Shown here: positions 10,722 to 57,509 of the stretch, one piece after another
Layout: each line of letters starts with the position of its first letter
Position numbering within the stretch: the first letter of the stretch is position 1
Assembly (NCBI GenBank): GCA_036867785.1
Contig: CP145417.1
Coordinates: 806,001 to 870,000, forward strand
Source of the DNA: Plasmodiophora brassicae
Taxonomy: Eukaryota
Length of the DNA stretch: 64,000 nucleotides
Reading direction: 5' to 3'
The notes under the pieces: model-generated
The model's input: the letters and a program-made list of their open reading frames with translations, nothing else
Database searches by the model: none
What the model was told of the DNA's origin: nothing
Made by a program: the position numbers and the translations under genes

Positions 10722-11125
10722 CGACTCTTTTTGGCTCCGCTGTCGTACTGCAGAAGCAGAGGCGGCGACCATGCGACGAATGTACGTAACACACAGCTAT
10801 TGTACTTACCGTCATACAAGACCCCTTAATCACCACGTCGGATTTAGCCATGACCCGCAAGTCAAGCACAGGCGGATCGGTGACCCGACTAATCGCAACC
10901 TCAAGACTCAAGTTGCTGCTGCCCACGGATTTAGCTCTACGGTGACGTGGCATGGCCGACGCCGAGGACGGGATGGGATGATACAGCTCATTGGGAGATT
11001 GGTTCGAGAGTCTGCACTTCAGTGTGCCCAAGCAGTGGCAGGCTCTCAAAACGGAAAGCATTGAAATCTGCGACCCCCTCGTCTATTTACTCTATATACG
11101 CAGTACTATACGTTCTCGGCCACCA

Positions 11126-12973: not shown

Positions 12974-13149
12974 TGCACGGACGGGAAATACGACACTACG
13001 TATCATATCGTTGCCTGGTTTAACCATCTTGTTTGTCGTTCCGAGTAATTGCAAGTAGTTCCAACTGGTCACATCATTCCATCCTCACTGTCGTTCGCAA
13101 CAGTTGCGTGTTAGAACAGTCCATATCGGCGTGGTAGGTCTTTCGCCAA

Positions 13150-13760: not shown

Positions 13761-14211
13761 TATCTGTCATCGATTTGACGCTTTGGGCGGGCTGGGGCGG
13801 GGTGGGGTCCACTATCCGGTGCACCCGTCGTCAGATCCGACGACTCTTTGTCGTCACCTGCATTATGCAGGATAACGTAGTTAAACCTCTGAATGTTCAC
13901 TGCCCGTCGTTGTAGTGCACCGTCGGCCTCGACATATCGGACAGCTCTGCTGAGTACTGCGGAAGCAGATGCGGCCCTGCGGTGAAGGTATGCTACATAT
14001 GTATAGATATCGCTTCATTCGAACGACCTTGTCACGAAGTCGGATGTAGCGGCGACGCGCAGTTCAAGCACATGCGGATCAATGACCCGACTAATCGCAA
14101 GTGGAGACTGACCTGATGGGCAGCAATGGCTGGCTATGAAAACGGAAAGCATTGGCATCTGCAACCGCCTCGCCGTTCTACTCTTTATCCGCAGTACGTT
14201 CTTGCTCACCA

Positions 14212-16057
14212 ATGAACATTGACGCCTGCAGTGCTCTTCGCGAGGCATGTCGAGCTGGAGACACCGACCGGGTCCGGCAACTGCTGCAACCGTCAACCGC
14301 GGCGCTCACTGAACCACCGGATCCGAATACGGCAAACGGGTACTGCCTACAGGCTGTATGCGAGCGGGGACACCTTGAATGCCTCAAGCTTCTACTCTCC
14401 CATCCTAATGTTGATGTTACAGCGAACGCGAACTCTCCTTTACGTCGTGCGGCCGAACGTGGTACGTACCCTACCCAGACCGCAGTTTGCCACAGCACCA
14501 TGCATAATGCTATCTGCAGGCCATATCCGCGTCGTGGAGTACCTTCTTCAATGCCCGGACGTCAACCCTGCTGACTTGTCATCCTGGGCACTACGAAAGG
14601 CGGCACAGAACGGGCACACGAGTGTTGTGAAAGCGCTTATCGATGACGGGCGCAGCGACCTGACCGCCCATGGCAACTTGGCATTGAACTTTGCCGTCAA
14701 GGGCGGTCACCACGACATCGTCCACTTGTTGCTGGAATCGCCCGCAGTTCGCGACGCCGCTAAGGATGGCGTCGCGCTCGGATTCGCCGCCTCCAATGGC
14801 GACCTGGACCTGGTTGAGCTGTTCCTCACGGGGATCCCCTGCATCAACGCCAGCGAACGCGACAACTGGGCGTTCGTGAACGCTGCTGCGAATGGTACGG
14901 CAATCTCATGCACCTGTGTCACAGGTACCTGACCGCTTCCCACAGGGTACACGCGCGTCTGCCGTCGACTGCTACAGGAACCCGGCGTCTCCGTTGCCGG
15001 GCAGCGCCACAACGCCATTGTCTACGCGGCCATGTACAATCATTACGAGTCAGTGTTCCGCGCCGGTATTGTGAACGTGACTTTGTTGATCATGATGACG
15101 TACAGGACGTTGCGGTTCCTGCTGGACTGCCCTGGGGCGGATCCTGGCGCTCAGCAGGGCGCCGCACTGTGCTGGTCGGCCAGCAACGGGCATACGCGTA
15201 TCGTCCGCCTCCTTGTTGAGGACGGACGCGTACCCGTCAATAGCCGCGACGGTGCCCCACTGGTACCAAACGTGCGCCTCTAACGCTGCATCACCTAACA
15301 TCACCGTGTTAGATTCGTGCAGCGGAGAATGGCCACTTGGAAACTTGTAAGGTGTTGCTCGAGGCTGGCGCGGATCCAGGGCTCCGCGAGAGCGAATCGT
15401 TGATCTTTGCGGTCAAGTATGGGCATGTCGACGTGGTGGTGTTGCTGGCCGAACACGAAGCCGTAGACGCGAGTGCCCAGAATTGCAAAGCGCTGATGAC
15501 GGCCGCAAGCCAAGGCAACCTGAGGATCCTCGAGGCGCTTGCCAGTCGTAATGATACGGGAATAAGGTCGCGAGGGTCTAAGGCGCTGGCCATAGCTGCC
15601 AGTCGTGGACACGTCGGCATTGTTGATTACCTGTTACGAAACGCGGAGGTTGATCCTTGTATGACGGTTCATGAAATGTATGCCAACTGGGCTCTAACCG
15701 CTGTCAGGTGACGGCGACGGGTTGGCGTTATCATGGGCAACGTTGGAGGAGCACGCCTCCGTTGTGCATCGTTTGGTGCGCGACAGCCGTGTCGTCGAGT
15801 TCGTTGTCCGGTCTGGGTGCCATCGGACGTCGGCACTGATTGCACAGGCCATGAAACAGGTTAGTGACGAGTGCCGTGAAGCGATCTCAGTGACGTTCGC
15901 GTTACGAGACTATCGCAGCAGTATCTCACTGCCAGGCGACTGCCAGAATCTCATCCTAGAGTTCGCGTTCGGGGATTTCCTGCCCAACGCTGCTACCATC
16001 GACTGTATCTACAAACGCATCAAGGAGAAATCTCAACGGCGTCTGGTTCACACATAA
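14212..16057 (+). CDS. Ankyrin-repeat protein, copy 2 (tandem paralog)
   Basis: Colinear with copy 1 in exons, introns and flanks; reading frame appears intact. Confidence 0.9.
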
Positions 16058-16788
16058 TGCACTGGGCGGGATGACCCCCGACACGAACTTCGGAAATCGG
16101 CCCTGAACAATACGGCACCACGTATCATGTCGTTGCTTGGGTTAACCATGGCCAACCGTTTGTGTCGTTCCGAGTAATTGCAAGTAGTTCTAGAGCATAT
16201 TCTTTCGCGGGTAAGCTACCGGTAGTTGGACGGTGTCCCGCTAGTGCCATATTCTCGAATGCCAGCTCGTGTTCGGGAGTTTCCCAATGAATCCTGTCCT
16301 GCCAGGTTGGTCCCTCATACGCACTCCATATTCCCTTTGAGACAGGTATAGCTTCCTGAGATAGAGTAACTCATCCACTGAGCTGTCACGGTTTGTGCAG
16401 CCCTTGCCGTCCTATGTAGGTAGGCGGCGAGGTATAAGGGAGCGCGACTTTACTGAATGGATGGTGATTGAAGACGAACCTGAAAAGAACTGGTCGACAG
16501 AGGCACATACCGGACGGAAGACGCGAAACGTGTACTGTTTGAATTCTTCACCAAAGTGGAGAGGTTATCTTTATTACAAGTGAGCAGCTTTGCTCAGAGC
16601 AGTAAACAAGGCCTGCGTAGCGATGAACGCTCGCACGACATCCTTCCTGAAAGTCTGAAACGCTAACTTCGAACGGACGTGAGCATGCACCATTTTGCAG
16701 GCGCAAAACAAGTCGTACGGCCTACGGGCGCCGTCGTGTAAGTCCGTGGCGGAGTCCGCCGTAAGCCCGCTCCAGTGGTGTGCCGGTC

Positions 16789-33146: not shown

Positions 33147-33443
33147 GGTGCCCGGAACCACACCTGACACTATCTATGTAGGTAGGCCGGCTCAGACCTG
33201 TCGGAGTGCGCTGCGCGGGTGGTGGGTCGCTGTGCAAGAAGGGAGCCGCTGGCCCATCTCCGGCCATCCGACTGCCCTGGTAACGCAGACAGCGGCGGGG
33301 CGCAGCCCATTACGGTTTTCGCGGACACTCGCGGGCAAAACGCGGGCTTGGGACGAGGTGGCCAGCGTTGTCACCCCCAGCGGCCCACGTCAATTGTCTA
33401 ATCGGTTGCCCGGCCGCTGGGGGAACCACGATACGACAGCAAC

Positions 33444-34988
33444 ATGGCCAGGCAGACGCGCGCCCGGCAGGTTACGATCGATGCGCTGTTCGTGCAGCGT
33501 AAGCGCACGCGGCGCGACCTGCCCAAGGCGGCCAAGTCGACGAAGACGTCGCCGCCTGTCAAGGATGCACCTGTGACGTTGGACCTACCATGCAAAGACC
33601 GGCGCCCGTTGGCGACTCCTGCGCCGGTCGAGATCGACCCGTTGCATCACGCCGTCGAATTCATTGGGTCCTGTTCGTCCGATCGCGACCTGATCACCGC
33701 GTTACACCGAGACGGCATCGACGGCGTTCCCGAATCACTTGTTGGTCGCGTCCGGACCCAGCTGGAGAATTGTGGAACGAGCCTCAGCACGGTCGGGGCC
33801 ATGTGCGGCGCTTGCGACCGGCAGTCGGCGCTCGCGACGATCTGCACCCACTGCCGAGGGACCGATGTCTACATCGGCCGCGATCAGCTCCCGTTCCAAT
33901 TCGTTGGCGTGTCGCGTGAACTCATCCAAGGCCGCACGGCATCTGCTGCCCTTCGTGGCCTTGATGCCGCTTTGCGCCTCCTACTGAACGAGGCCAACAA
34001 GGCGACCGCTTCGTTCGACACGCATGGCGGCGACGCCCTATTTTTGTTCCGGTTCCTGGCGCAACGTGCCAGCGACGAACGCGTCCGCGTGACTGCATTG
34101 CAACTTCTGAAACGCGTAATGGCTCGCTGGGATGAGCGGCACCCATCGCTATCGCTCAGGAAAGGAAAACACGCGCACCACCACGTCCTGTGCTTCGCTG
34201 AGGCCGTTCACGCCAAACTGTTCCTGTGCGACCCGGCGACGCTACCCGACCTTCGCGATCAGCTTCGCGAAGCGCTAGCCGGATTCCGTCTCCAGGAGCT
34301 GATCGCGTTCGTCCCTGGCCAGCTTCTCTACCTTCCCGACGGCGTTTGTGGGAACTGTCTGAAAAAGAACAACCTGAAGAAGTCGACCCTGTGTGCATCG
34401 TGCAGTCGTGAAATTTCTCCTGCTATCGATTATCAGTCGATGTTCTTCGCCTTGGTCTGGTCCGGCCTGTTCCGCAACCTAGACGTCGACCTGAAGGCCT
34501 CGGATCATTGTTGCCGAGTCGAGGACATTCTGCATCACATGGGAAGCCTTCGACCGTATCGATCAGTGGATGATATCGGCCACAGCAGCTTCATGGGCCA
34601 GGCCTACTTCGTGACGCACCTCATCTTCGTAATGAGCGACTGGGGCGCACATCGTCTTGATCCTTCGCTCTTCGCCGAGGAGGTCGTCTTTATCATCAGC
34701 AACATCGAGACTGCCATCCGTCTAGGCGACCCTGAGCTCGTCGGCGAATTCATCCACAGCCTGAGGATCCTGGGCGCGTCTGACGCTGATTACGCCGTCC
34801 GACGCGGCGTGGGGTACCTTCTGCAGAAGGAGCGATCTCTGAAGGGCAAAGGGTCCTGGGTGAAACCGAATCGCCCGTTCTACCAGGTCTACCATTCCAT
34901 CTACTGTGCCATAATCGGACTAGTCGAGATCGATTGCCATCCAGTCGCCGCTCTTCCCGACCCGTCCTGGAGGAGGCACTTTCTATAG
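33444..34988 (+). CDS. Uncharacterised 514-aa protein with two CxxC-pair clusters and a DUF6895-like helical C-terminal domain
   Basis: Single long ORF; CGAC..CTHC and CGNC..CASC; motifs AYFVTHLIFVMSDWG, DPELVGEF, YHSIYCAIIGL. Confidence 0.75.
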   Translation: MARQTRARQVTIDALFVQRKRTRRDLPKAAKSTKTSPPVKDAPVTLDLPCKDRRPLATPAPVEIDPLHHAVEFIGSCSSDRDLITALHRDGIDGVPESLVGRVRTQLENCGTSLSTVGAMCGACDRQSALATICTHCRGTDVYIGRDQLPFQFVGVSRELIQGRTASAALRGLDAALRLLLNEANKATASFDTHGGDALFLFRFLAQRASDERVRVTALQLLKRVMARWDERHPSLSLRKGKHAHHHVLCFAEAVHAKLFLCDPATLPDLRDQLREALAGFRLQELIAFVPGQLLYLPDGVCGNCLKKNNLKKSTLCASCSREISPAIDYQSMFFALVWSGLFRNLDVDLKASDHCCRVEDILHHMGSLRPYRSVDDIGHSSFMGQAYFVTHLIFVMSDWGAHRLDPSLFAEEVVFIISNIETAIRLGDPELVGEFIHSLRILGASDADYAVRRGVGYLLQKERSLKGKGSWVKPNRPFYQVYHSIYCAIIGLVEIDCHPVAALPDPSWRRHFL

Positions 34989-37159: not shown

Positions 37160-37815
37160 CTAAGGCGCCAGCGACAGGTCCACCCGACCCATCCCGGCCG
37201 CCCTCTTCATGACCTCCACAGGTTCACGAGTGGTCGGCTTGGTGAGCGCGTCCGCCGGATTGTTCTTTGACGCCACGCGCTCGAACCGGAGCAGTCCCTC
37301 CTGGACGCACTCTCGCACATAGTGCCATTTCACCCGAATGTGCTTGTTCCGGTCCGTGACCCCGAGCGTCTTCACCATCTGCTCGGCAGCCGTGTTGTCC
37401 TCCAGCACAATCGACGGGTCCGTCAGAGTGAACCCGATGTCGGTGAGGAGCATCCGGACCCACACTACTTCACGCGCCAGCTCGCTGGCCGCCACGTACT
37501 CCGCGTGCGCTGAGGAGGTCGCCACCAGGCTTTGCTGCTTCGATCGCCAGCTCACAGCTGCGTCCATCAGCGTGACGATGAATCCCGTGACCGACTTGGA
37601 TGTGTCCGGGTCCATCGCAAAGTCCGAGTCGACCGCCGCCCGGGGCTCCGACTCCTTCACGTTGTCTTTGTTCAGTGCCATCGGGTCGAATTCAGTCGCC
37701 GGTGTCTTGCTCTTCGCGTAGATGATGCCGACATCCGTGTTGTTCTGGACATATCGCAGCACGTGGAGCATCGCCTCGAAATGCTCCCGACCCGGGTTGT
37801 TCAGGGACGCCTTGA
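37160..37815 (-). pseudogene. Copia RT C-terminal stub plus RNase H, out of frame with the integrase
   Basis: PGREHFEAMLHVLRY, VDSDFA, VSWRSKQQSLVATSSAHAEY, EDNTAA, KHIRVKWHYVRE, NPADALTK; no YVDD core. Confidence 0.9.
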
Positions 37816-39185
37816 GCAGCAGGTCCTCGATCCCCGCCGCCCTGAGCTGCTTGCTCATCGCGTCCGTCATGCCGGTCTTCACCGGCACCTGCGAGTTCCC
37901 TGGCACGGTCGTCCCCGCCGCCGCCTCGCTGAATGGCGCGGCCATCCTGGCCGCCGCCCTGTTGTTGACCGACGCGACCTTCTCGATCGCCGTCGTCTTG
38001 TCGTGCGACGCGATCGTCCCGACCGCCGTCGTCTTCTTGCCCATGACGATCGTCTTGACCGCCATCGCCGCCTCCTTGCAGCTGGGCTTGCGCCGTCTCT
38101 TGGCGCTTGCGGGTCTCCTCTCCGCGGGAGCCGCTGTCATCCTTGAACGGGAATTCGTTGGGGAAGAAGACCACGTCCGAAGACTCGATCATCTTGCGGC
38201 TGTGCCACAGCAGCAGCCGGTACGCCTTCTTGTCGATGCACACCCCCATGTGGACCGCGCGCTCGGCCCTGGCGTCCAGCTTGCACTTCTTTTGCCGCCG
38301 GATCCTGACCCACGCCTCGCAACCGAATGGCATCGCCCTCGACAGGTCTGCTTGTTCCCCCGTCAGTTCCTCGATTGGCGTCGTCCGGTGGCCGTGTCGT
38401 TGGAGCGGCACGCGGTTGGCTACCCACGTCTGATGCCGCCCGTTCTCGGTCCAGTACTTGCGCGGGACGCCTGACTGGACACGAGCTGCGCGCATCATCT
38501 TGACAATCTTGCCACCGAACGTCTCCGCGAGACCGTTCTGGTGCGGGCGGTCCGTGTCGCTGAACTCCTGTGCGATTCCCCGCTCGCGCAGCAGCTTCGC
38601 CAGGCGCGTCGAGGTGAACTCGCCGCCCTGGTCGGCGCGGAACGTGTCGACGCGTGTGCCGCCCATGACCTCGAGCCGGGTCAGCACGTCCATGACGACT
38701 TGCTCCTGGTCACCCTTATTTGCCAGGTTGACCGTGGCACCGACACCAGTCGCGTGGTCAACGTAGCACGCCATGTACGTCTTTCCGTCATGCGACCTGG
38801 TGTCGAACGTCTGCAGGTCCGCCCCGACGATCTGCAGCTTCGAGAGCACCGTCCGTGTCCGTCTCCGCGGGATCGCCGTTCGGTTGAGGTTGGCCTCGAT
38901 GCACACCTTGCACCTGGGCACCTCGTCGCTCGCCAGGTCGGCCTCGTCGATGTTGAGACCGGTGATTGCCCCGTTCTTGACTGCCTTTCTGATCGTGATC
39001 GTGGACAGGTGGCCGCACCTCGCGTGCGCCTCCGCCAATGATATCGTTCTGTCGCGCTTTACGTCCGCGGGCTTGCGCGTTTCCTTCTTCTCGGCCGGCT
39101 CCTCCTTGCTCGGGCTCTTGTTTTCTGGCTGGTTTGGATGATCGTGATCGGGGGCGGCCAGCGCCACCCCCGCTACTCGAAATCC
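37692..39185 (-). CDS. Copia integrase ORF in the -1 frame relative to gag-PR
   Basis: HARCGH...CKVC zinc domain; GADLQ, RADQGGEF, PHQNGLAE core; KLDARA and SSDVVFFPNEFPF. Confidence 0.9.
   Translation of the reverse strand, partial: GFRVAGVALAAPDHDHPNQPENKSPSKEEPAEKKETRKPADVKRDRTISLAEAHARCGHLSTITIRKAVKNGAITGLNIDEADLASDEVPRCKVCIEANLNRTAIPRRRTRTVLSKLQIVGADLQTFDTRSHDGKTYMACYVDHATGVGATVNLANKGDQEQVVMDVLTRLEVMGGTRVDTFRADQGGEFTSTRLAKLLRERGIAQEFSDTDRPHQNGLAETFGGKIVKMMRAARVQSGVPRKYWTENGRHQTWVANRVPLQRHGHRTTPIEELTGEQADLSRAMPFGCEAWVRIRRQKKCKLDARAERAVHMGVCIDKKAYRLLLWHSRKMIESSDVVFFPNEFPFKDDSGSRGEETRKRQETAQAQLQGGGDGGQDDRHGQEDDGGRDDRVARQDDGDREGRVGQQQGGGQDGRAIQRGGGGDDRARELAGAGEDRHDGRDEQAAQGGGDRGPAAQGVPEQPGSGAFRGDAPRAAICPEQHGCRHHLREEQDTGD
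39149..39185 (-). promoter_or_regulatory. Putative -1 programmed ribosomal frameshift signal
   Basis: G_GAT_TTC (39185-39179), 6-nt spacer GAGTAG, 10-bp stem CGGGGGTGGC/GCCGCCCCCG with GCTG loop. Confidence 0.8.
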
Positions 39186-40642
39186 TGGACCTTGTGCAGA
39201 TCCAGGTAGTACAGGCCCTTGCGGACCGTACTGGTCACGATCGTCCTTCCGGCCCCGTCCAGGAGCCGGGCTGAGCGCGTCTGCTCATGGTGCTCCGCGC
39301 CCGTCTTGCCGTCCTTGCCGAGCTGCAGGAGTGCCGAACGCACCGCGAAGATGTTCGCGGATGCATCTGGCGCGTACGCGACGTTTGTCAGCGTGATCGA
39401 CTTGCCGTTAGCCAGCTTGAGGCGGACGTTGCCCCTGGCATGGACCTTGATTCGCTGCGGGCCGATGCCGCCGATCGTCGGCCGGTCCTTGTCGGCGATG
39501 AAGTCCAGCTCCTCGAAGTGCGCCTTGTGGGTGGACACGTGGCCGCACGTCGCCGCGTTGTCGACGATGAAGTCGCGGATGCCCTTCCGCGGCGCGTCCT
39601 CGACGCCCGCCAGGCTCGTCAGGAGCGCGATCGACGCCGAACCGCCTTCCTCTTTGCCCCCCTTCCGCTTGCCGTTCCTGGCCTTGCCGCGCTCGGCGTT
39701 GCCGGTCTTCTTGCGGCTACGGCAGTCGGCCGCCCTGTGTCCAGCCTTTCCACAGTTGAAGCACTTGCCGGAGAACCCCGTCGTCGTCATGGCCGCCGAG
39801 GAGCCGCTGTCGTCGTCGCCGCGCTCTATCGCTCCCCGCTTGTACTGAGCGAGCACTTCTGCGCGGACCTTGCTTTGCGTCAGCTCTCCGATGGGACCGC
39901 GCAGCATCGCGTTGACTAAGTCCTTGTACTCGGTGTATGGCAGCGAGATAAGGACCTTCGTCGCCATGTCCGACTCAGTCTTCGTCCGATTCGGATCCGC
40001 CCGGGCCAGGTTGATGCCCAGGTCGCGCATCGCCGTCAGGTGCGCCTTGGTCTCCGTGAGGTCGGCGCCCGCCTTAAGCTTTGTTGTTGACAGAAGAATG
40101 TCGAACATCGCCAGGTCCGTGCCCGTTTGGCCGGAATACTCCGTCTGGATGGCGCTCCACGCCAGGTCCGGACGGTCGTCGGGTATGTCGAGTATCAAGG
40201 GAAGTTCGTCTTCATGCACGTTCTTCTTGATAGCGTACATTGCGTGGAGCCTCTCTTGCTCCGACGCCGGCTCTTCGTTGTGCCCGCGCGTCGCGGGCTC
40301 CACGGCCTTTTGCAGGCCCGACTTCTTGAGCATCGTCGTCATCGACGACGCCCAGACCAGGTAATTGTCCTTGCCCTTCAGCTGGACGGAGATCTTGATG
40401 CCGGACTCCTTCAGGCCCGTCAGCCTTTCCTTCTGCGCAGCTTCCAGCCGCGCCAGACGATCCTTGAGCGCCGCGTTCTCGCGCTGGCCGGTCCCGCTCC
40501 CGGCCGCCGCTGCTTGCAGACGTTCAACCTCCGCCTCCAGCCGATCCTGCTGCCGCTGGGCCTCGGACAGCGCAGCGCTTATCTGGGCGATCACGGCCTC
40601 TGCTTGGGCCAGGTCGGCTGGGATGCTTGGGATCGTCGCCAT
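39173..40642 (-). CDS. Copia Gag-protease ORF
   Basis: LKGKDNYLVWASSM, zinc knuckle CFNCGKAGHRAADC, protease FIVDNAATCGH, LTNVAYAP. Confidence 0.92.
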   Translation of the reverse strand: MATIPSIPADLAQAEAVIAQISAALSEAQRQQDRLEAEVERLQAAAAGSGTGQRENAALKDRLARLEAAQKERLTGLKESGIKISVQLKGKDNYLVWASSMTTMLKKSGLQKAVEPATRGHNEEPASEQERLHAMYAIKKNVHEDELPLILDIPDDRPDLAWSAIQTEYSGQTGTDLAMFDILLSTTKLKAGADLTETKAHLTAMRDLGINLARADPNRTKTESDMATKVLISLPYTEYKDLVNAMLRGPIGELTQSKVRAEVLAQYKRGAIERGDDDSGSSAAMTTTGFSGKCFNCGKAGHRAADCRSRKKTGNAERGKARNGKRKGGKEEGGSASIALLTSLAGVEDAPRKGIRDFIVDNAATCGHVSTHKAHFEELDFIADKDRPTIGGIGPQRIKVHARGNVRLKLANGKSITLTNVAYAPDASANIFAVRSALLQLGKDGKTGAEHHEQTRSARLLDGAGRTIVTSTVRKGLYYLDLHKVQDFE

Positions 40643-40647
40643 CAGAG

Positions 40648-40663
40648 AGTGGGACTCTTAATC
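40648..40663 (-). promoter_or_regulatory. Primer-binding site complementary to the anticodon arm of tRNA-Lys(CTT)
   Basis: Plus-strand TGGGACTCTTAATC abuts the LTR and matches the eukaryotic tRNA-Lys(CTT) anticodon stem-loop as I recall it. Confidence 0.75.
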
Positions 40664-43813: not shown

Positions 43814-44821
43814 CTAATCGTCATCGCCGCTCATGACGGGATCGTCATTTCTGGCAGCCAGCAACAGCTCTTCAGCGTCGCGACGTCCCAGGGCCCAGTC
43901 CAGCGGTGCCCGGTCATGTACGTCCTTCACCCAAATAAGGACCCCTTCGACCTTCAGCAGTACGCGGATGACATCGGCCTGTCCGTCAGCAGCAGCATAG
44001 TGCAGAGGCGTCATTCCTTCCTTGTCACGAGCGTTGACGTTGATTCCGCTGACATTTAACAGCAACTCGACGATTTCGACATCTCCAGCCGATGCGGCTG
44101 CGTGCAGAGCCGTCATCCCGTCTTCGTCCTTAGCGTTAACCATCTTGGACACGTGCACCAGCAATGCTACAACGTCGACGTGTCCGCGCGACGCTGCTAT
44201 GAGCAAGGGCGTCGTTCCCGTGTAGTCGCATGCGTCGACGTTGATTCCGTTTGCCCTTATCAGTAGTGTTACGACGTCGACATGACCTTCGCTGGCGGCT
44301 GCTAGTAGTGGCGTCTTGCCGAGCTTGTCCTGTGCATTGACGTCGACCCCAGGGTCACTGAGAAGCAGAGCGACAATTTCAACGTGCCCACGTTCAGCGG
44401 CAACGCGCAAGGGCGTCATGCCATCTTCGACGTCGGGTATACGGACGTTAATTCCTGGACAGTTCAACAGCATCTCGGCAACCAGAGTCTGGTTTTCTCT
44501 TGCGGCCCAGTTCAATACGTTCCCAAGAGAATCCCATGGTTGGTCGTTGATAGCAGTGAGATCGCCGGTACCGCCAGCCCGCAGGTTGTTAAGGACTTGA
44601 TTGACAATTGCTTTCTGTGGATTGGTGCCGGCAGAACGGTAAAGGCGAGCGATACCAGGGGCGTGCAATAGGTGGCCCATGGCAGATGAGGCGCTGGCAA
44701 TGCGGTTATTCGAGCGGCGACTTGGTCTACCGGCGCCATCGGTAACGCCGTACAGAAACACGATTACAACGAAGGCCGTCGTTGCAACACGAAAGCTCGT
44801 CGGGGTGCCCATCAGATGCAT
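43814..44821 (-). CDS. Secreted ankyrin-repeat protein (candidate effector), single exon
   Basis: Signal-like FRVATTAFVVIVFLYGVTDG followed by about 7 canonical repeats (GMTPLRVAAERGHVEIVALLL). Confidence 0.88.
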   Translation of the reverse strand: MHLMGTPTSFRVATTAFVVIVFLYGVTDGAGRPSRRSNNRIASASSAMGHLLHAPGIARLYRSAGTNPQKAIVNQVLNNLRAGGTGDLTAINDQPWDSLGNVLNWAARENQTLVAEMLLNCPGINVRIPDVEDGMTPLRVAAERGHVEIVALLLSDPGVDVNAQDKLGKTPLLAAASEGHVDVVTLLIRANGINVDACDYTGTTPLLIAASRGHVDVVALLVHVSKMVNAKDEDGMTALHAAASAGDVEIVELLLNVSGINVNARDKEGMTPLHYAAADGQADVIRVLLKVEGVLIWVKDVHDRAPLDWALGRRDAEELLLAARNDDPVMSGDDD

Positions 44822-47448
44822 CTCTGTATCGGACGTTCCTCTTGTCTGAACGCTGCTCAGCTCGTCGTTTCCGTCAGATACTACAATGCAATCCTGGAAG
44901 ACAAACCGCGCCGGAAAATCTGACGCGCAGTCGCGGAGTTTCCACTGCGAGCACAACAGATGGCCAGTATTTCGTTGCACAACAGTTATCGTTCCTTCCA
45001 AAGTAATCGTGGATGTTTCAGAATCAATTCCTTGTGCAACACAATATTCAGATTGACATTGAGCAATCTCGGAAACGGTATAGGCCAGACAAACTCGTGA
45101 CCTGGTGCGGTCGACACAGGCAGCATATCGGCTACAGCGGGGCTATGTACAATTCTGCGGAGGAGCGACAAATCGGCTACATCAGAGCATCCCCAACCCG
45201 TAGCTATTTCCCTAGCTATAGTCAAAATTTAGCTAGAAAACAGCCCCACCCGGGCTAGCTATCGCTATATTTTCCGGGTTGACCGACAATTAACGCCAAC
45301 TCGAGACTGTTGTGATCCAGTTTGTCGACCTCGTCTGAATCTCCAAACGTAAATCGACTTCCGGTCTGGGTGCGGAACAATCGGCATATCCAGCCCTGAC
45401 AAAGTGCTGGGTAAATAACCCAATGACGACAATAACCTGGTGCTGTTCTCCTACCGGTTCCTCGCTGTCGCCGACATCACTTGGAACGCTTGTACGATGT
45501 TACGCGCAAATCAGATTGTCGCTGATAACGCGCGTTTCACGTAGTGCATCCATCGCTCCACGAAAGCAGTTCCAGGCACTCTGCCTGGCACAAGCCGTCA
45601 ACACAATGAGAGCACTCGTATGTAGTATTTTCCTACTGAAATGGTTTTCATGGTCGCTGGTCCGCATCCCAGCGAGCGCGGCACGAAATTTCAGAGCGAT
45701 ATTGTCAAGGGCATACATATATAACAGGGGTGGCAAACGTTGAATAGCCCTTGTGAGGAAAAGGCTGCCACTTTAGCCAGTTCCATATAATCATATCCCT
45801 GAGATGACGTCAGAAAACTGGCAGACGCGCTCAAGCAGCGATGAGTACCTCTGGACGTGGAGAAGACGCGTCCACTTTGGGAACCTATCGGACGCGTCCC
45901 CGAAGGAACCGCAAACTTGATGCCAATGTTGTGGTCCACGCCTTGTAACCTGAAGAATGGATATTCAAATTCTTACAATCTGAAGAGGGATAAAGCATAT
46001 CAAACCGGTGAAAAAGATGCTTCAGAACACTCGGCATGGCATTCACCAGCATCGGGCGGAAGGGCTTCCCCGACATCAAGATCGACAGTGGACAGGTTGC
46101 ATTCAGCGTCATGCGTACGGTAACATGCATCTTAACGGCCTCTGCTGATGCATGGTCGGAGCCATACGACTTATCAGAAACAGATGAATCGGAATCCTCA
46201 TGCGTATGATCGACGACAGAAGAGCTGACGATGATGGGCATTGGAGACGATGGACGAGTGCTGTTCGATGGTGGAATCTGACTATAAGACGAACTGGCCG
46301 CATCAGTGCGTGCAGCCTTCCTGGCACGAAGAAGACGAGGCAGCGAGGCGACACACGGTGCGGCAAGTGAGAGGAAGCCGCCGAAACAGGCGAACCGCGT
46401 ACACTACGCGTATCAGTGGCAGACCGCACGCGTAGACGGGAAATTGTTTCTCTTCCCGCGGGATGACACCCCCGATTGATCCCGCGGGACGAAAAGGACG
46501 TACTTTTTCATCCCGCGGGATCACATCCCGCGGGATGAAACGTCATATTGATCCCGCGGGGCGAAGCGGCATTTCCCGCGGGACGAATCTATAGGTTCAT
46601 CCCGCGGACGAAAAGCCAGCGTGTCGTGCTCAGGAAGGAGTAGTTGGTGCGTCGGGTACAGGACGGAGCCAGTCTCACTCGACGGTCAGCTGTTTGACCT
46701 AGCGGGCTCATTCTTTCCGTCAGGAACAATAGACTTAACAATTACGCCAGAACAAATGCAACCGCCAGCCGCGGGTGGAGGATGGAGCCGGTCTCCCGGT
46801 CTCGCTCGACGGGCAGCTGTTTGTCAACGGCGACTAACGCAGATCTTCACTGGTGCTCATTCGCTATATCATGAACAATAAACTTTAAGGCGGTGTTGCA
46901 ACTTTACTATTTGTTATCGAGGTAGAAATCGGCGTGCAAAAACCAGTACATCCAGCGCAACCTCATGACGTCCATGCACGACGACTTGAACGTTACCGGA
47001 AGGCTTCTGGCAAGAGCTTCCGCCATTGTCAAAACAAGCATGCCGCAATTGCAATCGTCCAATTGGCGCGGTCCCGCCAAGACTCTCGTCTCGAAAGGCT
47101 TGGCAGGAAACGCCGAAGTCGCCCAGGGCATGATGGCATTGGTCGCGATGGATCGCAGACGAGCGGTGTAGGTTGGATCGCAAAGACTGTCGTACAGGTA
47201 CACCAGCCCCAAGGCAGCGTCGACGACGACCAGACACCAATGCACATTGAAGAACTAGGTACCATGAAACCAGCAGTGAGCAAAACCCGTAAGTCAACAG
47301 CAGAATGGATTGGACTTACGTTGACTGGACAAAGGAACATCGTTGCGCTCGAGTCACATTCGGCGATGACTCCCCACCTGCCGTGGTCGTTCATCTCGAC
47401 TTTGCACGGCGCCACGTGCGTGCTGTCCTTTGAAATCAGAGTCATTGC

Positions 47449-49055
47449 TGTGGAGAACTACCTGACAACGCTGGTGCACGACAGTGTGCGATGACTACCG
47501 ATCACGCGGTGTATCGAGTAGACATGAGAATGCTGACTGAGGACCAGGGCGCGGCTGGTGAAGGCCTTGGTCTCGGAACGTGGCTTGGTGCCGGAAGGTG
47601 GCTAGATGCCGGAAGGTGAGTGGCGTGAGTCATTGTGGTGGAGATGACTCATGACATCATCCCCCGCCAAAAAGGGATGTGGGGGTGGAAGGTGCGCGTG
47701 ATGAGCGGCTTGATGAGGTTGCGGGTCAAGTGAATCTTGATGGTGCGCGTGATGTGCGGCTTGATGTGATTGGGCTGGCTCGCAACTTGAGAACTGTGCG
47801 ATCTGGCTGGAGACGCGGCTCATATTTGTTTCGGACTCGCAGAATCTGTGACAGGATGGCAGTCGATAATGTCGTTACCGTGGGCGATGCCGATGACGTT
47901 GCCATATACGCTGGGACGTTCAGTGCCGGAGTGGCACATTCCTGGGCTGAGACTGATTGATGCGGATGATGAGGGTGGCGAGGAGCCGGTTGAAGTCGTT
48001 GAGTGGAGGTCGATGAGACCGATTGATGCAGATGATGAGGGTGGCGTGGAGCCGGTAGGACCGTCGGTGATGTCGTTACCATGGACGATGGCGATATCGT
48101 TGCCATATACGTTGGGATGTTCAGCGCCGGAGACGGCTGAGACCAATTGATGCGGATGATGAGGGTGGCGTGGAGCCGGTAGGACCGTCGGTGATGTCGT
48201 TACCGAGGACGATGGCGATGTCGTTGCCATATACGTTGGGATGTTCAGCGCCGGAGACGGCTGAGACCGATTGATGCGGATGATGAGGGTGGCGCGGAGC
48301 CGGTAATGCCGCTGGAGAAGACTTTGAAGAAAACTCTACCCAGGGCAGGAGGGTCGTAAGAGGCGCCGTTGACTAGGGATCGTGAACGACGTGCATGCAG
48401 ATGTGGCTGACGGAAGATCTGCGCTTGTAGACAGTTGCGCCTGGAAGTTGAGCAATAGAACTCGTGGAACCTCGGGAGATTCGCGGGCAGAGGTACCCAG
48501 TACGGTGAATGCGGAACGGGGGCGACGGCTGGAATGGTGCCGGTTGTTGTGCCGGAAGAGCGACTTCCATGTGGATGAAAGTCTCCCCGATGATGTCGGG
48601 TACCGGCCGGTGGATTTGCGTCCGGCGCGGATGGTACGGTTCTGAACCGGGGGTCGTGTTGATGACGGCGCTTGACGATATCCTGCATGGAGTCAGCGGG
48701 CGCATGCGGGTATCTAGCGTGTCGTGCATCGCGCTGTTGCTTGTTGGAGAGGCCGTGCTTGTCGGACCTCAATGATCGCGCGGAAGAGGATATGGTTAGG
48801 AGCCCTTTTCTCCACCTTCGTGTCGGTTGGTTCATCGCAAAAAAAAATGTGGAGAACTACCTGACAACGCTGGTGCACGACAGTGTGCGATGACTACCGA
48901 TCACGCGGTGTATCGAGTAGACATGAGAATGCTGACTGAGGACCAGGGCGCGGCTGGTGAAGGCCTTGGTCTCGGAACGTGGCTTGGTGCCGGAAGGTGG
49001 CTAGATGCCGGAAGGTGAGTGGCGTGAGTCATTGTGGTGGAGATGACTCATGACA
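47449..49055 (-). mobile_element. Small non-autonomous LTR element (TRIM-like, probably Gypsy-derived); 208-bp LTRs; 5-bp TSD ATTGC
   Basis: LTRs 47449-47656 and 48848-49055 look identical (TG...CA); ATTGC at 47444-47448 and 49056-49060; PPT-like GGCGGGGGATGA on the minus strand. Confidence 0.93.
47865..48305. repeat. Imperfect tandem repeat of about 124 bp (roughly 3 copies plus a partial) inside the small LTR element
   Basis: Recurring ATGTCGTTACC...GTTGCCATATACG...GATGCGGATGATGAGGGTGGCG..GAGCCGGT; units at 48069 and 48193 are 124 bp apart. Confidence 0.85.
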
Positions 49056-50543: not shown

Positions 50544-53218
50544 CTAACCTTGCTGACGACTATCGTAAAACGGACATTTGCGCCCTGAACGATGATCTGT
50601 TGCGGTGACGCCATTTCGCAGACACGCATGACACTTGGCGGCCTGCCTGTCCGTTGCAGAACGGGCGTCAAGTCGAGACGTGCGTTGAACACGATCAGGC
50701 AGTCGGCCACGCATTGCCCCCTGCCGCAACGGAGGACGAACGGCAACGTGAGCTTCTTGAGGATCCGCTGCGTGTCGAGCGCCAGCAAGATGCGACTGAA
50801 ACTCGGTTTGCAAGGAGGCAAACGTGGACATCAAGCGCCGATACAAGTGCTCGTTGGATCGGGCATCATGAACCAAACGCCCAAATGCCTCGGTGAGTTT
50901 TCGATACCGAACCTCCTGTTTCGACGGGTAGACGACTCGGTGATAAATATCGTCCTGGGATGCACGAACTGACACTGCTGGTTCATCAACCACGATACTG
51001 TCGCACGAAGCGTCACGTTCTGGAAGCATTGCATGATCTCCACCGGCTGCCGGCGCGTCAGGGACGCGAAGGTTCCGCCTCACTGCCTCGTATTGTGGAT
51101 GAAGGCGAAGCCACCATCGGCGGTGGACGTACTGCAAACTGAAGATATCATCTTGCGTGCGATTGAAGACAGCACAAATGCCGCTACACGGAATTAGTGT
51201 AGACCTACGAGAATAATCAGGAAGATATGAAGCACAACGCAAAGACTGTACCTAACCTGAACTCGGGGCACGTGCAAGATGGAATGTTGCCAAGGGATAC
51301 ATCGCCGAGCATTACGTGGTGTCGATCCGGCTGGTCAGAGGTTCCCACTTCGTACTCCCCTAAACAGATGTCACTGTAGGTAAACCCCAAACTGAATGCA
51401 GTATAGACTCTCACCTGTATCCACCTCCCTAACTGAACTGAGAAGGCGCGAATTGAGCTGTCTCTCTCGAAAAATGCTGTCAACGTAGTCGCTCCAATGC
51501 TTGCCCTTGCGAATAAGGTTAGACAATAGTCTTGCCGCCTCGTCCTCCTGTTGTTTCTGTATCATTTCCAGATGCGTAAACATCTCGAATAAGTTCGCGC
51601 GTGAGAGCCACGGCTGCACATCGCGTTTGGTACGGCTGATCGTGCCTTCTGCCCGCTGGTTTGACGAGTGTGATCCGGTAAACTTACAACTGGTGAATGT
51701 ACGACAAAGTTGTTGTCTCTTGTCAACAATGTCGTCGAAGAGTTTCACGGCTCCACCGTACTGTAGAAACATGAGGCGATACTCGTCCGCCTTCGCGAAG
51801 AACGCGTCTTCGGACGGAAATATGTGATAAACTAGCGTGTTCGCCTTGATCATGAACTCCTTCCCCTCGTGGCCAAGCCCTATAATGATGTTGTCTAAGA
51901 ATTCGATAACGGCAGTACGAGAGTCGCAGAAACTAATTACCTGCACAGGCGCGAGCTATCTTCGCCTGATAATGCTTGGTGCATTGGTGGTACACCATAT
52001 CGCATTCCACGGCAGCTGCCCGAAATGCTAGAGCATCGTCGGCGATCAGAACAGACTCGCTTCGTTTCACCCTAAAGTATTCTAGCGTCTTCACGACGTC
52101 CGCTTTGTTTTCAGCGGAGGGCCCAGCCATCGCGCCAACCACATACGACTTGCCTATTACCCATTGCGGTCACGCAAAGATATTGATCACAGCACGACAA
52201 ACGTACCAAGGCAATCGATAACGGTGACCGGAAGGAACACAAAGCCGTACGCGTTCATCTTCGCGCCGCCGTCGATTTGTACAACGTCGTTGTACACAGA
52301 CGCGAACTGAAGCCCTTCAGCGCGCGCTAGCCAGATTTTTTCCAATCGACAATCGACATCGATGTCGATTTCAAAGAAACCTCCGTGTTCTTCGTAGCTT
52401 CGTCCCAGGTTGATAAGGGCGTTCATAGCATCACGATCGCCGCCGAACGCCTGCAGTTTCCCCTTCCGCAGAAGACGGTGCAATAATGGCTTCTGAATTC
52501 TGCAGTCTGGAAATTGATCGGACAGCATGCGTGTGACCTGTAACATAGTTATACACGGAAAGGAGCTCGTAATCCCCATTTACCATTGGAAACGGAAGGG
52601 AATACTTGCCCAGGTTAATTATGTACGACAACTGGTCAGGAGTCAAATCCCGTTGGTCATTGACAATTACTGTCGTTGGAGATGGGATCATCACAAGGTG
52701 GTTGTGGGACAGACAGAATCTGTCCCCCTTAATGACGTATTGCCGTCGTCCAACATCGTACGTGAACGGAATGTTCAACGAACACGACGACTTCACTGAC
52801 CGATCAGCTTTCTCCGACTCGGTCTTAAAGTTGCAGTATCCATCACCTGACGATGGCTTATGAGTAGGAACCAACAACGCAGTGAAGGAACGAAATAACG
52901 AACCACGCGCCCAGGCTCCTTCGTGTCCGAACAACTCTACAGAGCGAGATGCCTTGGCGAACGTTTTGAACTTTATGATGACCTGTGAAAAATGTCAAAA
53001 TAATGGTACTTCAATTCACGGTTGGATAGACTTACACGGCACCCAGTCCTCTTGGCGAACCCTTCGATGAAATTCTTCAGTTCGAGTTGGGTTTCAAACT
53101 CCATCCCCGGAGCAGGGACGCCACAGACAGAATCTTGACCGGTGTCGCCGTCATCATCGCCAATCTCAATCTCCGGTAGATCCGGAAACGCTTGGGCGGC
53201 CTCGTCAACGCTCGCCAT
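50544..53218 (-). CDS. MULE transposase (FAR1-like, DDE, SWIM and C-terminal zinc knuckle), multi-exon
   Basis: PGMEFETQLEL, CLSHNH, VVQIDGGAKMNAYG, LIADDALA, HQCTKH, SNQRAEG, SWIM CTCPEF...IPCSGI, CHAC...HRSGRKCP. Confidence 0.88.
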
Positions 53219-53708
53219 CTCAATCTCAACCAGATCAACGGGCCGCGGGACGAATCTATAGGTTCATCCCGCGGACGAAATCACGGACAGCGAACGCGGG
53301 CACCCGCAGTAAAGCAGCAGCTCGCGGGACGAATGGCATTTTTCGTCCCGCGGGATCAATCGGGGGTGTCATCCCGCGGGAAGAGAAACAATTTCCCGCG
53401 GGATGAAAAAGTACGTCCCCGCGTAGACGTCGAGACCGTCGTATACAATGTAATACGAAATAGATGCTGACACGGCAGCAGATATTTATTGTTTATCCTG
53501 TTCAAATCGTGGAACACTGTACCTAGCCTTGTGACGACTGAAGTCGGCAGTGAGCGGCGTCCTGCCAGAGTCAGTGCGACCGGCTCGGGAGACGGGTGCT
53601 GCATGAAGGCCGCGCAACCCACGCACGCAGTGGTCTCGACCCAGTCAGACTCCGACCCGGCCCCTGCTGCTCATTCATGACGTGCGCTCACAACCAGTCA
53701 AAGTGATA

Positions 53709-55993
53709 CCACCACGGGAAGATGATTTTGCATAACGGGGACGAAATTTTTGCATAGCGGGGACATAATTTTTGCATGGCGGGGAACAAATTGAAGGTTG
53801 GCGGGGAACATAACGAATGGATGGCGGGGAAAAAATGCGTGGATGAGTGGCCCAAAATAAATGGATCGTCTCAATGCATGCGGGACGCGCGAGGGGGCCG
53901 CCTCATTGTGTACGGTACGGTACCCCCGTTGCAGGACGACGTCACCAGAACAATGGCCGGGATACAACCGATAACGGTAAGCCGATACCATACAGTAACT
54001 CCGACGTACCTACCGTACGGGTACCGTATTCTGACTTCATATCCCACATAGGTAGGAGGGTTGCAATCGTCGCCGACGCCCGCGCGTAGGCGAGTCGGTC
54101 GTCCTGCGATGAACCCGGAGCGGATTCCTCGCTTGGACCCTACAATCGCGTCGGACCCTAGAATCTGTGAAATCGACTTTACGACACCGGTTGCAAGGAT
54201 CCAGAACGCCGCTGAGCAACGCCGCCTGGAAGAACAGTGTCGAATCGCTCGCGAAAAAGCTCGACAGCGCGCATACCAGCAATTGCAGCAAATGGAGAGC
54301 GCTGCTGACCATGTTCGGGCTGTTGCTGACAGGGAGATCGACCGCATCCATCAGGTTGCGGACCGAAAACGACGCTTCGCTGACGAGTTGGTCGAGTGGC
54401 AGGCCCGACTGTCGGCCGACGAAGTCGCTGTGGAATCTGTTCCAGAGCGATTTCGTAAGGCTCTTCTCCCGCGGAAGCCACATATCGACGAAGACGAAGA
54501 TCGTCTTATGCATGCTCTGGACGGAAAGCGTTCGCAGGTATCGACGAAGACGAAGATCGTATTATGCATGCTCTTGACGGCAAGCGTTTGCAGGTGGAGA
54601 TCGCACGCGAGGTCGGCTGTGCTCAGTCAACGGTCTCCCGTCATCTGAACGGGGTATCGCAATCCCGTGACGGTTCTGCTCGAGGCCGGCCGCGGAAGCT
54701 GTCGGATGAGATGCTGAATGCTGCAGCGCGATTCATGTTTCTGCTCCCTGGTGCGACACTGACACTTGCAGCCGCATTTCTCCAGTTGTCGTACCATGTC
54801 GTCGTGTCCCGGAAGACTCTTGGGAAACACTTGCGGCGTAGGGCAGGGTTCCGCCTTGGTGACTTCAAAACCTTCCACGTACAACGCAATGCGCCAGAAA
54901 CAATCGATATTCGGTTCAGATACGTTGCCCGTCTGGAGTCGGAGGATTATCGCCGAAAGTTCGGCCCGAACCCGCTCTATGACGCGATCTACTACGATGA
55001 GATGCCACTAGCTCGGATTGCCAACCGAAAAATCTGGTCCGTTCGCGGTTGGATTCCGTCTCTGGTTGAAGAATCGGTCAGAGGACGCCACGTTTCGCTT
55101 CTGCTTGCTGTGAGCCCAGCAATTGGGGTTGTATGGTACGAAGTTCTCGATAAGACAATTGATGGTGACGCGTTCCTCGCTTTTTGCAACAACTTGGTCA
55201 AATCGTATGTGAATACTTCCAGGAATGGTCGCCCGCGGCTGTTCATTTTGGATAATGCTCGATTTCACCATGCTCGCTCGGTGGAGGCCTTTTTCGGACG
55301 CGACGAGGTCGCTCGCCACCTTGTCCTTGAGTTCCTTCCGCCATATTCGCCCTTTCTCGATCCCTGTGAGGAGCTGTTCGCTCTTATTAAGATCCGTATA
55401 TGGCTCAATTGGATTGCCGGCTCCTCCAATGAGCGGTCACTTGCACGCAGCAAGCAAACACTAGTTGAAGAAGTCCGGCGAGTAACGACAGACGATATCC
55501 GTCAGACGTACGACCATATGAGGGAATTCCTATCGTATTGCAAGGACCGGCGACCTGTTTTCACCCAAAAGTTGTACGAGTGTGCACACCATGGAGACGA
55601 GGAGCGGATGTGTCCGACGGGATCTTTGGAAGTGGATGATTTATTGAACAGTTACCTGCCCCAGTTTTATGAGGAGTTTACACCGAGCCGCTGTCAGCAT
55701 CTTCGTGATGTGTTTGGTTGTTCACGACTGACTAAAGACATCGTCGAGCAGTTCTACGACGCACATGTGCGTTCTGCGGGAGGCGGCGGCGCCCATGGCA
55801 GTGTGCGCTGAGTCGCTGCCACGCGCACGCACCTAACGCTCCAGCTATCGGTTTCAGAGAGACAAAATACATGCATAACGATCCATTATTTTTGTGCTCG
55901 TCATCCTTCAATTTGTTCCCCGTCATGCAAACATTATGTCCCCGCTATGCAAAAATTTCGTCCCCGTTATGCAAAATCATCTTCCCGTGGTGG
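53709..55993 (+). mobile_element. Complete Tc1/IS630-type DNA transposon; ~89-bp TIRs; TA TSD
   Basis: TA|CCACCACGGGAAGATGATTTTGCATAACGGGG... at 53709 and its reverse complement ending at 55993|TA; internal TTTGCAT..CGGGGA repeats. Confidence 0.95.
54109..55811 (+). CDS. DD38E transposase with N-terminal coiled-coil extension; predicted intron 54538-54593
   Basis: HTH QVEIAREVGCAQSTVSRHL, RGRPRKLS, YYDE, ILDNARFH...FLPPYSPFLDPCEE with 38 residues between D and E. Confidence 0.9.
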
Positions 55994-56739
55994 TATTGGG
56001 AAGCTCAGTGTAGCTCGAGATGGTGCGACGAAGACGAGCAGCGTCGAGGTTGTACAAGTGCGTCGACCTTCTTGTCAGGTAACTGACTGTTGGCATACGA
56101 ACACAGGCAATAACGGGAAGATGTTGCAGAGAATGAACTGGCAACGTCGCCCAGTCCTGGCACAACTCTGGACCCGTTTGCGAGCAGGAGAAATCGGTCC
56201 TTACCGCAGGGGCCGATTGCGGCGTATTTGTCCCAAGAGAACGTTAGGGCGGCAATGACGCCCCAGCGAAAGGCGATACGAGATGAAAGCGTTATGCCCC
56301 GCGTATGTCAATCATGGTTTGGTCTGGCACTGTACTATCTGACGAAACCGTGGATGTATAGCTATTACAGTGGCAACGATTTAAAGGACTGGCTGAGGCA
56401 TCGCGATGATCTCAGTGAAGAGGATGTCGACCTATAACCATACGTATCTGAGTAAGCGTGTATTCTCATGTAAATACGACTGTTACCACAGGGAACCATC
56501 TGGGGTCAAATAAGGGTTCAAATGAGGCTTTTCAGCATTGCCCCAAGATGACCCCTGTTTGACTCCCACTTGCCATCCAGTCACACTGTCGTCGGGGTGC
56601 CCGTCACAACCCTACTAAATTTGGAAACCTACTATTTATAGTTTCTCTCGGCGTGCACCTCGCTCGGAAACGTTGGGAGACATAAACCTTTTTATTACAT
56701 AATGGCGTCTGGAGCCTCACTTTTTCCATGGCGATTACC

Positions 56740-57509
56740 TCCTAAAATGAAAAGTATACATTGGATAATACCAGCAACATTGAGATCCACAGAGCAAGCT
56801 TACCGGTAGGCGCCGTCTTACACGCGATCAAGGACTTGCAGAAGCCCAGCGACAACCATGTCAATGATGTGGCTCTCACGAAACTGCGCGTTCGCCTCAT
56901 GTGGCATTAGTTGTTGTCTCAACTGTCGGAGAAAGTCAAACAGGCAGTCGTCGTGACCATCTACACAATGATTATTAAATTGGCGACAAATATGTGAATC
57001 CTTCATCTCCGTACTTTCAGTATGTCGGCACAGCACGTTCGATTCGCGCGAACATACATTTTCGGCCTTACGCTTGCTCTTGCGCGTCTGCTTAATGACT
57101 GACACGAAGATACGTTTAGAATTTCGAGACAAGATTTGGTTGCAGACTTCGACAAACGTTGCTTTGTATCCTCTACGGTCCACCATTTGACCGGAAGTCC
57201 AATGGATGGACCCTCTCTTAACATCCTGATGTGTATCTCCACGTCTTTATGGCAATCCCTCGACAGGTCGGCCTTGTATGTCCTATACAATAACAGTTAA
57301 TGTTCGTTTCGCCGGACAGACACGCGTGTAACGAACGACGTGTATATCGTCCTGGCAAGGTTGATTGCACGTTTACGCTCTGCTGTGCGCTCTTGCCGCG
57401 CGCCTTGTGACCGAAACTTCTTCAGAAGTTCTTCCTCTTCCGCAGACGGCACGCCCGCTTGTCTCTGCGCCAGACTCAGGGAAACGGTATGCGACCCTGC
57501 ACTCGCCAT
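56740..57509 (-). CDS. Second, accessory gene of the EnSpm element (hypothetical, multi-exon)
   Basis: Three consecutive minus-strand ORFs (57509, 57290, 57186) separated by intron-sized GT-AG gaps, inside the TIRs. Confidence 0.55.

Follow-up and report, generated by a model that had tools for sequence, protein, structure and literature searches.

The 64,000-nucleotide (nt) stretch analyzed in this study, hereafter the window, comprises positions 806,001 to 870,000 of the forward strand of contig CP145417.1 (assembly GCA_036867785.1) from the rhizarian Plasmodiophora brassicae. It contains a Tc1/IS630-like DNA transposon at 53706–55996 (all positions are those of the window), and inside the transposase gene of this element a 56-nt segment of coding sequence is duplicated in tandem. 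A model of intron gain reportedly put forward by Rogers (1989) holds that an AGGT-bearing stretch of exon, once duplicated, can generate a new intron, and in its original form this model is said to be purely exonic. The evidence assembled here makes it likely that the second intron of the transposase gene is of the Rogers type, born by tandem duplication of the exon beside it.

The transposon and its duplicated coding segment

The element is bounded by terminal inverted repeats (TIRs) at 53706–53822 on the left and 55881–55996 on the right, paired by blastn (the left arm with 55996–55881) at 91% identity over 117 nt. The outer 64 nt of the two TIRs are identical. A TA dinucleotide adjoins CCACC at both ends (53707–53708 and 55994–55995), and this TA, which also extends the inverted repeat, may be a target-site duplication. 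Subterminal direct repeats of 22 bp, in about five copies at 53726–53836 (period 22 in Tandem Repeats Finder, TRF), have a mirror array at 55917–55986 in the right TIR arm. These arrays of 3 to 5 copies may represent multiple binding sites for the transposase.

The downstream open reading frame (ORF) of the element matches the Pfam family DDE_3 (PF13358) with an E-value of 7.9e-17 and 61.9 bits against a cut-off of 28.6, and weak HTH matches lie ahead of this core, HTH_5 scoring 22.4 bits (cut-off 22). A catalytic D-84-D-38-E triad is predicted, its residues being placed by motif (YYDEM, LDNARF and PCEELF) and conserved in the alignment with related proteins, which carry the source names Tc1-like or IS630. 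Possessing both a DDE_3 core and TIRs, the element is, as judged from its sequence, a DNA transposon of the Tc1/mariner-IS630 superfamily.

The original prediction, made from the DNA letters of the window, had described two tandem copies of a 56-nt segment starting at 54483 and 54539, and both TRF and direct letter comparison confirm this description. TRF delimits the array to 54483–54595 (period 56 with 2.0 copies, a score of 198 and 92% matches free of indels) and finds no other array of period 56 in the window. Copy 1 (54483–54538) and copy 2 (54539–54594) are identical at 52 of 56 letters, the four differences being C/A at 54505/54561, G/T at 54519/54575, A/C at 54525/54581 and C/T at 54533/54589. 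Translated each in its own frame, copy 1 gives IDEDEDRLMHALDGKRSQ and copy 2 gives IDEDEDRIMHALDGKRLQ, with 16 of 18 residues alike; two of the nucleotide differences are synonymous and two nonsynonymous. Each unit ends in CAGG and is followed by T, the junction between the copies reading CAG/GTATCG and the 3' end of copy 2 reading TTTGCAG/GTG. AGGT occurs once per unit, and segment 54538–54593 is therefore the sole 56-nt removal with GT..AG ends. Taking it out joins KRSQ to VEIARE in frame, just as had been proposed for the fusion of the upstream and downstream ORFs. The duplication itself is also carried by an independent assembly: a 118-nt contig from sequencing run X17, spanning 54453–54570, crosses the junction between the copies with no difference from the window, which rules out an assembly artefact as its source.

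Related proteins show the state of the gene without the duplication. A search of 1.84 billion representatives yielded 1295 matches, its closest full-length relative (P0029) being 42% identical; taken together, the closest full-length relatives found are 39–43% identical and have sources that include the red alga Rhodosorus and oomycetes; the closer fragments P0036 (68%) and P0041 (69%) do not cover the duplicated site. The relatives have a common architecture, arranged in a single protein: an N-terminal GRPxxLP motif comes first, followed by a coiled coil, a short helix, a QSTVS recognition helix and finally the DDE core. In this comparison of proteins, all 11 relatives that span the site contain the duplicated segment once, directly before the recognition helix of the helix-turn-helix (HTH) motif, in agreement with the single-copy ancestral state that had been predicted; P0005, which starts within the segment, and P0006, which has no HTH, were excluded from the count. 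The best 12-residue self-match within any relative is at most 6 of 12, compared with 16 of 18 between the two copies in the window. Alignment matches the upstream ORF to the N-terminal halves of these relatives, and a protein search with the N-terminal ORF returned 95 candidates, none at E <= 0.01. Since the relatives are single-copy and single proteins, the upstream ORF is real coding sequence and the two-copy state is derived. As an observation of its own, fragment P0041 looks as though an N-terminal part had been fused to a C-terminal part.

A joined contig and the revised gene model

Four sequencing runs (X1, X6, X17 and X18) were compared with the window, all of them as contigs rather than reads, a form that gives neither level nor strand. 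Run X1 contains one contig of the transposon family, 1885 nt long at a depth of 21.2, which agrees with the window without a mismatch over 1872 nt. This contig covers 53868–53975, 54051–54533 and 54590 to about 55883, and it is devoid of two segments with GT..AG ends. One measures 75 nt (53977–54051); the other measures 56 nt and, after the cut is slid by +4, corresponds exactly to 54538–54593. Together with the single-copy relatives, this exact correspondence upholds the earlier claim of an intron formed by tandem duplication of an AGGT-containing exon. The contig keeps the letter at 54533 and therefore carries the copy-1 letter at each of the four diagnostic positions.

Several properties of this joined molecule suggest that it is RNA. 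The contig lacks the TIRs and ends away from the stretches common to both of them. The word share of 53700–56000 amounts to 0.80–0.84 in runs X1–X4, close to the value of about 0.79 calculated for the exon pieces alone, where DNA of the whole element would be expected to give about 1.0. The family is represented by one contig in X1 versus 47 in X6, and the first missing segment has the form of a textbook intron. With 0 differences in 1872 nt between the X1 contig and the window, set against 4 in 56 between the two copies, the joined molecule cannot derive from a one-unit sister copy of great age. The contigs of run X18 cover only 54662–55780, downstream of the duplication.

Read as a transcript, the contig would define a gene of three exons on the plus strand. 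Exon 1, followed to the limit of the contig (53868–53976), contains in-frame ATGs at 53878 and 53953. Intron 1 (53977–54051; 75 nt, phase 0) reads GTAAGC...TTCTGAC...CATAG and is skipped in the contig (joint 53975>54051, cut +1); its CTGAC has the branch A 17 nt ahead of the 3' end, an in-frame TAG (54049–54051) closes the intron, and the same joint is present in X17 as a loose end (53979). Exon 2 (54052–54537), aligned with the relatives, carries the conserved N-terminal GRP motif, the coiled-coil region and the first HTH helix. At its end stands copy 1 (54483–54538), the parent unit encoding IDEDEDRLMHALDGKRSQ, whose letters in the X1 contig indicate that it is the copy kept in the mRNA. Intron 2 (54538–54593; 56 nt) is essentially copy 2 and reads GTATCG...CTTGAC...TTTGCAG, as delimited by the X1 joint 54533>54590 with its cut of +4. 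Exon 3 (54594–55811), defined by Pfam and the ORF, comprises the remainder of the HTH and the DDE_3 core and ends with the stop codon at 55809–55811. The 3' untranslated end of the transcript-like contig follows at 55812–55883, a limit obtained by arithmetic, in which 1872 of the 1885 nt reach 55870.

With both introns out, the frame that opens at ATG 53953 and closes with the stop at 55811 encodes 575 amino acids (aa), a length comparable with the 572 and 554 aa of relatives. An earlier placement of the gene start at ATG 54109 has to be abandoned, given that the GRP residues G16, R17 and P18, invariant among the aligned relatives, are encoded upstream of it; the start would instead be at 53953 or 53878, reached through the 75-nt intron that had been missed. 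No ATG occurs between 54052 and 54109, and the TAG at 54049–54051 closes the frame unless intron 1 is removed. The upstream frame thus attains an ATG (53953 or 53878) solely through the 75-nt removal, so that intron 1 is needed on independent grounds, and this need lends further weight to interpreting the X1 contig as mRNA. A transcript retaining intron 2 is predicted to yield a product of 206 aa that ends at TGA 54646 and is without a complete HTH.

These elements can be combined into a proposed sequence of events. A tandem duplication would have affected 56 nt of coding DNA that end in CAGG and have T as the next letter, so that the second copy came to begin with GT and finish with AG. At 56 nt, the copy would have had the preferred intron length of the group, and a branch-like TTGAC stands 16 nt before its 3' limit. 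Excision of copy 2 by the spliceosome would then leave copy 1 alone in the mRNA of a three-exon gene, and the spliced mRNA would encode the undisturbed ancestral protein of 575 aa, from the N-terminal motif through the coiled coil and the HTH to the DDE core. The locus accordingly presents what a Rogers-type intron is expected to present: a copy of the adjacent exon, GT and AG both supplied by AGGT, a restored protein, and a copy that is removed, the last as seen in the X1 contig, whose RNA label is a guess.

Splice signals, age and alternative explanations

Introns of P. brassicae are short and narrowly distributed in length. An excerpt of PMC2483917 gives a median of 55, a mean of 55.66 and a standard deviation of 7.01 for 86 introns, with TCTGAC as the top branch hexamer, and an excerpt of PMC4471660 gives an average of 60 bp. 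Intron 2, with 56 nt, lies within this narrow published range and contains one YTNAY motif, TTGAC, the A of which is 16 nt from the 3' end, in keeping with the CTRAY/YTNAY criterion for branch sites. In length and branch motif it fits a U2-type intron in the plasmodiophorid style. Its GC content is 0.48, as in intron 1, within a window of 56% GC. A published 5' splice-site consensus for P. brassicae was not found in our literature search.

Two of the four changes in copy 2 had been described as splice-improving. The G/T difference (54519/54575) supplies the TTGAC of copy 2 and so gives this copy its only YTNAY; copy 1 has a YTNAY of its own, CTTAT, located 29 nt from the end of the unit and absent from copy 2. 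The C/T difference (54533/54589) exchanges one pyrimidine for another, and selection for better splicing is not supported. At the protein level this second difference converts Ser to Leu. The aligned relatives carry T, S, N or P there and none of them L, which suggests that copy 2 is here the changed copy, free of coding constraint. At the place where the copies differ by L and I, relatives mostly have I or V and are nearer to copy 2. Substitutions may therefore have hit both copies, and any order assigned to the four of them would be a reconstruction.

The age of the duplication can be approached through run X17. Its junction contig overlaps by 30 letters the sole X17 contig over 54541–55420, which differs from the window at 24 positions (15 synonymous, 9 not) and contains no stop. 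The two-unit form thus appears to continue into the diverged half, in which case the duplication would be older than a divergence of 2.7% and the frame would have been kept open since. Among the listed differences within the family, 22 of 39 are synonymous versus 24–27% expected (p about 1e-5 to 1e-4); 24 further rows lie outside this count.

Of the alternative explanations, the one that survives best accepts the splicing as real and regards it as incidental, occurring in a decaying element without an active transposase. It would account for the internally deleted derivatives in run X6 (54140>55802), which are as found in old families, and it is compatible with catalytic DDE residues assigned by motif only and with a transposase activity that is a prediction. 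The open frame of 575 aa, the identity of the outer 64 nt of the TIRs, the synonymous excess of 22 of 39 and the apparent expression of the gene all speak against decay. We consider this explanation rather unlikely; the transposase is predicted to be active.

A second alternative interprets the duplication as a frameshift that killed this copy of the transposon, with the joined X1 contig derived from DNA, either a one-unit allele or another copy of the element. A number of observations favor it or otherwise weigh against the origin of intron 2 by duplication. Run X1 is labelled RNA by guess and may be DNA, none of the listed runs that contain the element is on record as RNA, and the 56-nt joint occurs in one contig of one of the four runs. 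In X17, which is guessed to be RNA, the unspliced junction is unbroken at full depth (96.7, compared with 104.8 in the neighboring window-type exon contig), and the 56-nt joint is not listed among the contigs of this run. Retention dominates in X17 if this run is RNA; should it be DNA, the loose end at 53979 represents DNA copies without the 75-nt segment, the joint lacking intron 1 would itself be DNA, and a DNA origin of the X1 contig becomes less far-fetched. In a contig of X6, which is guessed to be DNA, the letters before copy 1 run straight into a single unit (a loose end before 54539); this apparent one-unit form in DNA may be the ancestral state persisting within the species. The splice signals are modest, with a 5' site of GTATCG compared with GTAAGC in intron 1 and a near-absent pyrimidine tract. 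Finally, the argument from neutral decay is weak, as in simulation the frame stays open with a probability of 0.12 at 3.6% substitutions.

Set against a DNA origin is the structure of the X1 contig: two separate GT..AG segments are missing from it, and one of these has no connection with a repeat; the rest is identical over 1872 nt. A one-unit sister copy that predated the divergence of 4 in 56 letters should differ elsewhere as well. The word share in X1–X4 is about that expected without TIRs and introns, X1 holds one family contig against 47 in X6, and the frame is open over 575 aa. On balance, we judge it improbable that the joint reflects DNA.

It is extremely improbable that the transposase starts at ATG 54564 within copy 2, with the upstream ORF separate or meaningless: this ATG is in the downstream frame, but a start there would cost the protein the greater part of its first HTH helix, the two frames are joined in the X1 contig, and the upstream ORF, whose lack of conservation in relatives the original prediction had named as its own potential refutation, proves to be conserved and to align with the N-terminal halves of relatives that are single proteins. 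An introner, or an intron derived from a transposon, was considered and rejected, since the intron copies its adjacent exon and the transposon is the host of the gene, not the intron.

Known intron gains and the surrounding window

Gained introns with an identified source are few, and clean natural cases of the Rogers model are, according to an excerpt of PMC4974935, very few. The intron of ATP2A1, as described in excerpts of PMC3265369 and PMC4974935, also arose from an exonic duplication containing AGGT, in which the unit boundaries provide GT and AG and the peptide is unchanged. That event dates back about half a billion years and has been re-enacted experimentally (PMC3265369, excerpt), whereas here 52 of 56 letters are still common to both copies, and the host gene is a transposase in a mobile element of a rhizarian whose introns are very short. 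In fission yeast, two genes with units of 24 bp (PMC4974935, excerpt) resemble the present case in that both splice sites come from a young, recognizable tandem duplication within coding sequence and transcripts support them; there, however, the intron spans several short units, while here one unit of 56 nt makes up the whole intron at a length typical of the species. The intron of a potato RdRp gene (Ma, Lan & Niu 2016, PMC4974935, excerpt) is likewise recent, has an identified source and derives from a tandem duplication. There the duplicated stretch reaches across an old intron-exon boundary and takes over its branch site, pyrimidine tract and 3' site, in contrast to the purely exonic duplicate found here. 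A literature search at the level of listings returned no report of a duplication-born intron in a transposase or in plasmodiophorids.

What distinguishes this locus is that parent exon and intron copy still stand side by side at 93% identity, that the one-copy ancestral state is visible in relatives, and that a joined, transcript-like molecule exists. The match between the length of the intron and the narrow optimum of the organism suggests why a purely exonic copy could have been recognized at once, and the location of the host gene in a mobile element means that the new intron could be copied around the genome.

In the Drosophila P element, retention of the third intron gives a truncated repressor. 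An unspliced intron in the transposase gene described here would similarly give a truncated N-terminal protein, in this case of 206 aa; unlike in the P element, regulation of the retention and a role as repressor are conjectural, and the truncated product is without a complete HTH. One may go further and imagine the newborn intron as a travelling switch, in which the fate of intron 2, spliced out (X1) or retained (X17), would select between the transposase and an N-terminal coiled-coil protein of 206 aa that lacks a complete HTH or DDE core and damps transposition after the manner of the P element. Copies bearing the duplication would have transposed and diverged, and in genomes with introns confined to about 55 nt, AGGT duplications of about that length would generally become introns at once, offering plasmodiophorids a steady supply of new introns. 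We regard this extended scenario as a long shot.

Further observations concern the transposon family. One contig of run X6 skips 1661 nt of the interior of the element at the joint 54140>55802, with two filler letters, and looks like an internally deleted, non-autonomous derivative. Several of the sequencing runs that contain the element are plant metagenomes, and a metagenome scan with the transposase gave 81 pattern matches, none of which was confirmed. By blastn, no further copy of the transposon is present in the window. Rfam returned no match at gathering scores over 53000–57000, and Pfam assigned no family at E <= 0.001 to 10 flanking ORFs, leaving a likeness of ORF 52190–52579 to Mutator-type transposases unsupported.

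Elsewhere in the window, a tandem repeat at 48014–48305 (period 124, 2.4 copies, 95% matches, score 542) overlaps a minus-strand ORF at 48245–48856 without a Pfam match. Two neighboring paralogous genes at 10950–13000 and 14030–16090 are 91% identical and contain, at matching places, GT..AG segments of 49–51 nt (e.g., 11811–11861 and 14895–14945) with a branch-like motif 10–14 nt from the end. These are probably short introns; in the alignment of the paralogues they did not stand out. An ab initio search of the window for introns, in which ORFs were joined by GT..AG segments, produced too many candidates to discriminate among them. The minus strand also carries the ORFs of a Copia-type long terminal repeat retrotransposon at 37162–40657, with gag, zinc knuckle and integrase domains, and the window as a whole is repeat-rich for a genome reported to contain 5.4% repeats. 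An ankyrin-repeat protein gene lies at 43817–45142 on the minus strand (Ank_2, E-value 1.3e-67); the genome paper on P. brassicae is said to list ankyrin proteins as candidate effectors. The host ORF at 33402–34985 has its best named relative in Spongospora subterranea, at 44% identity.

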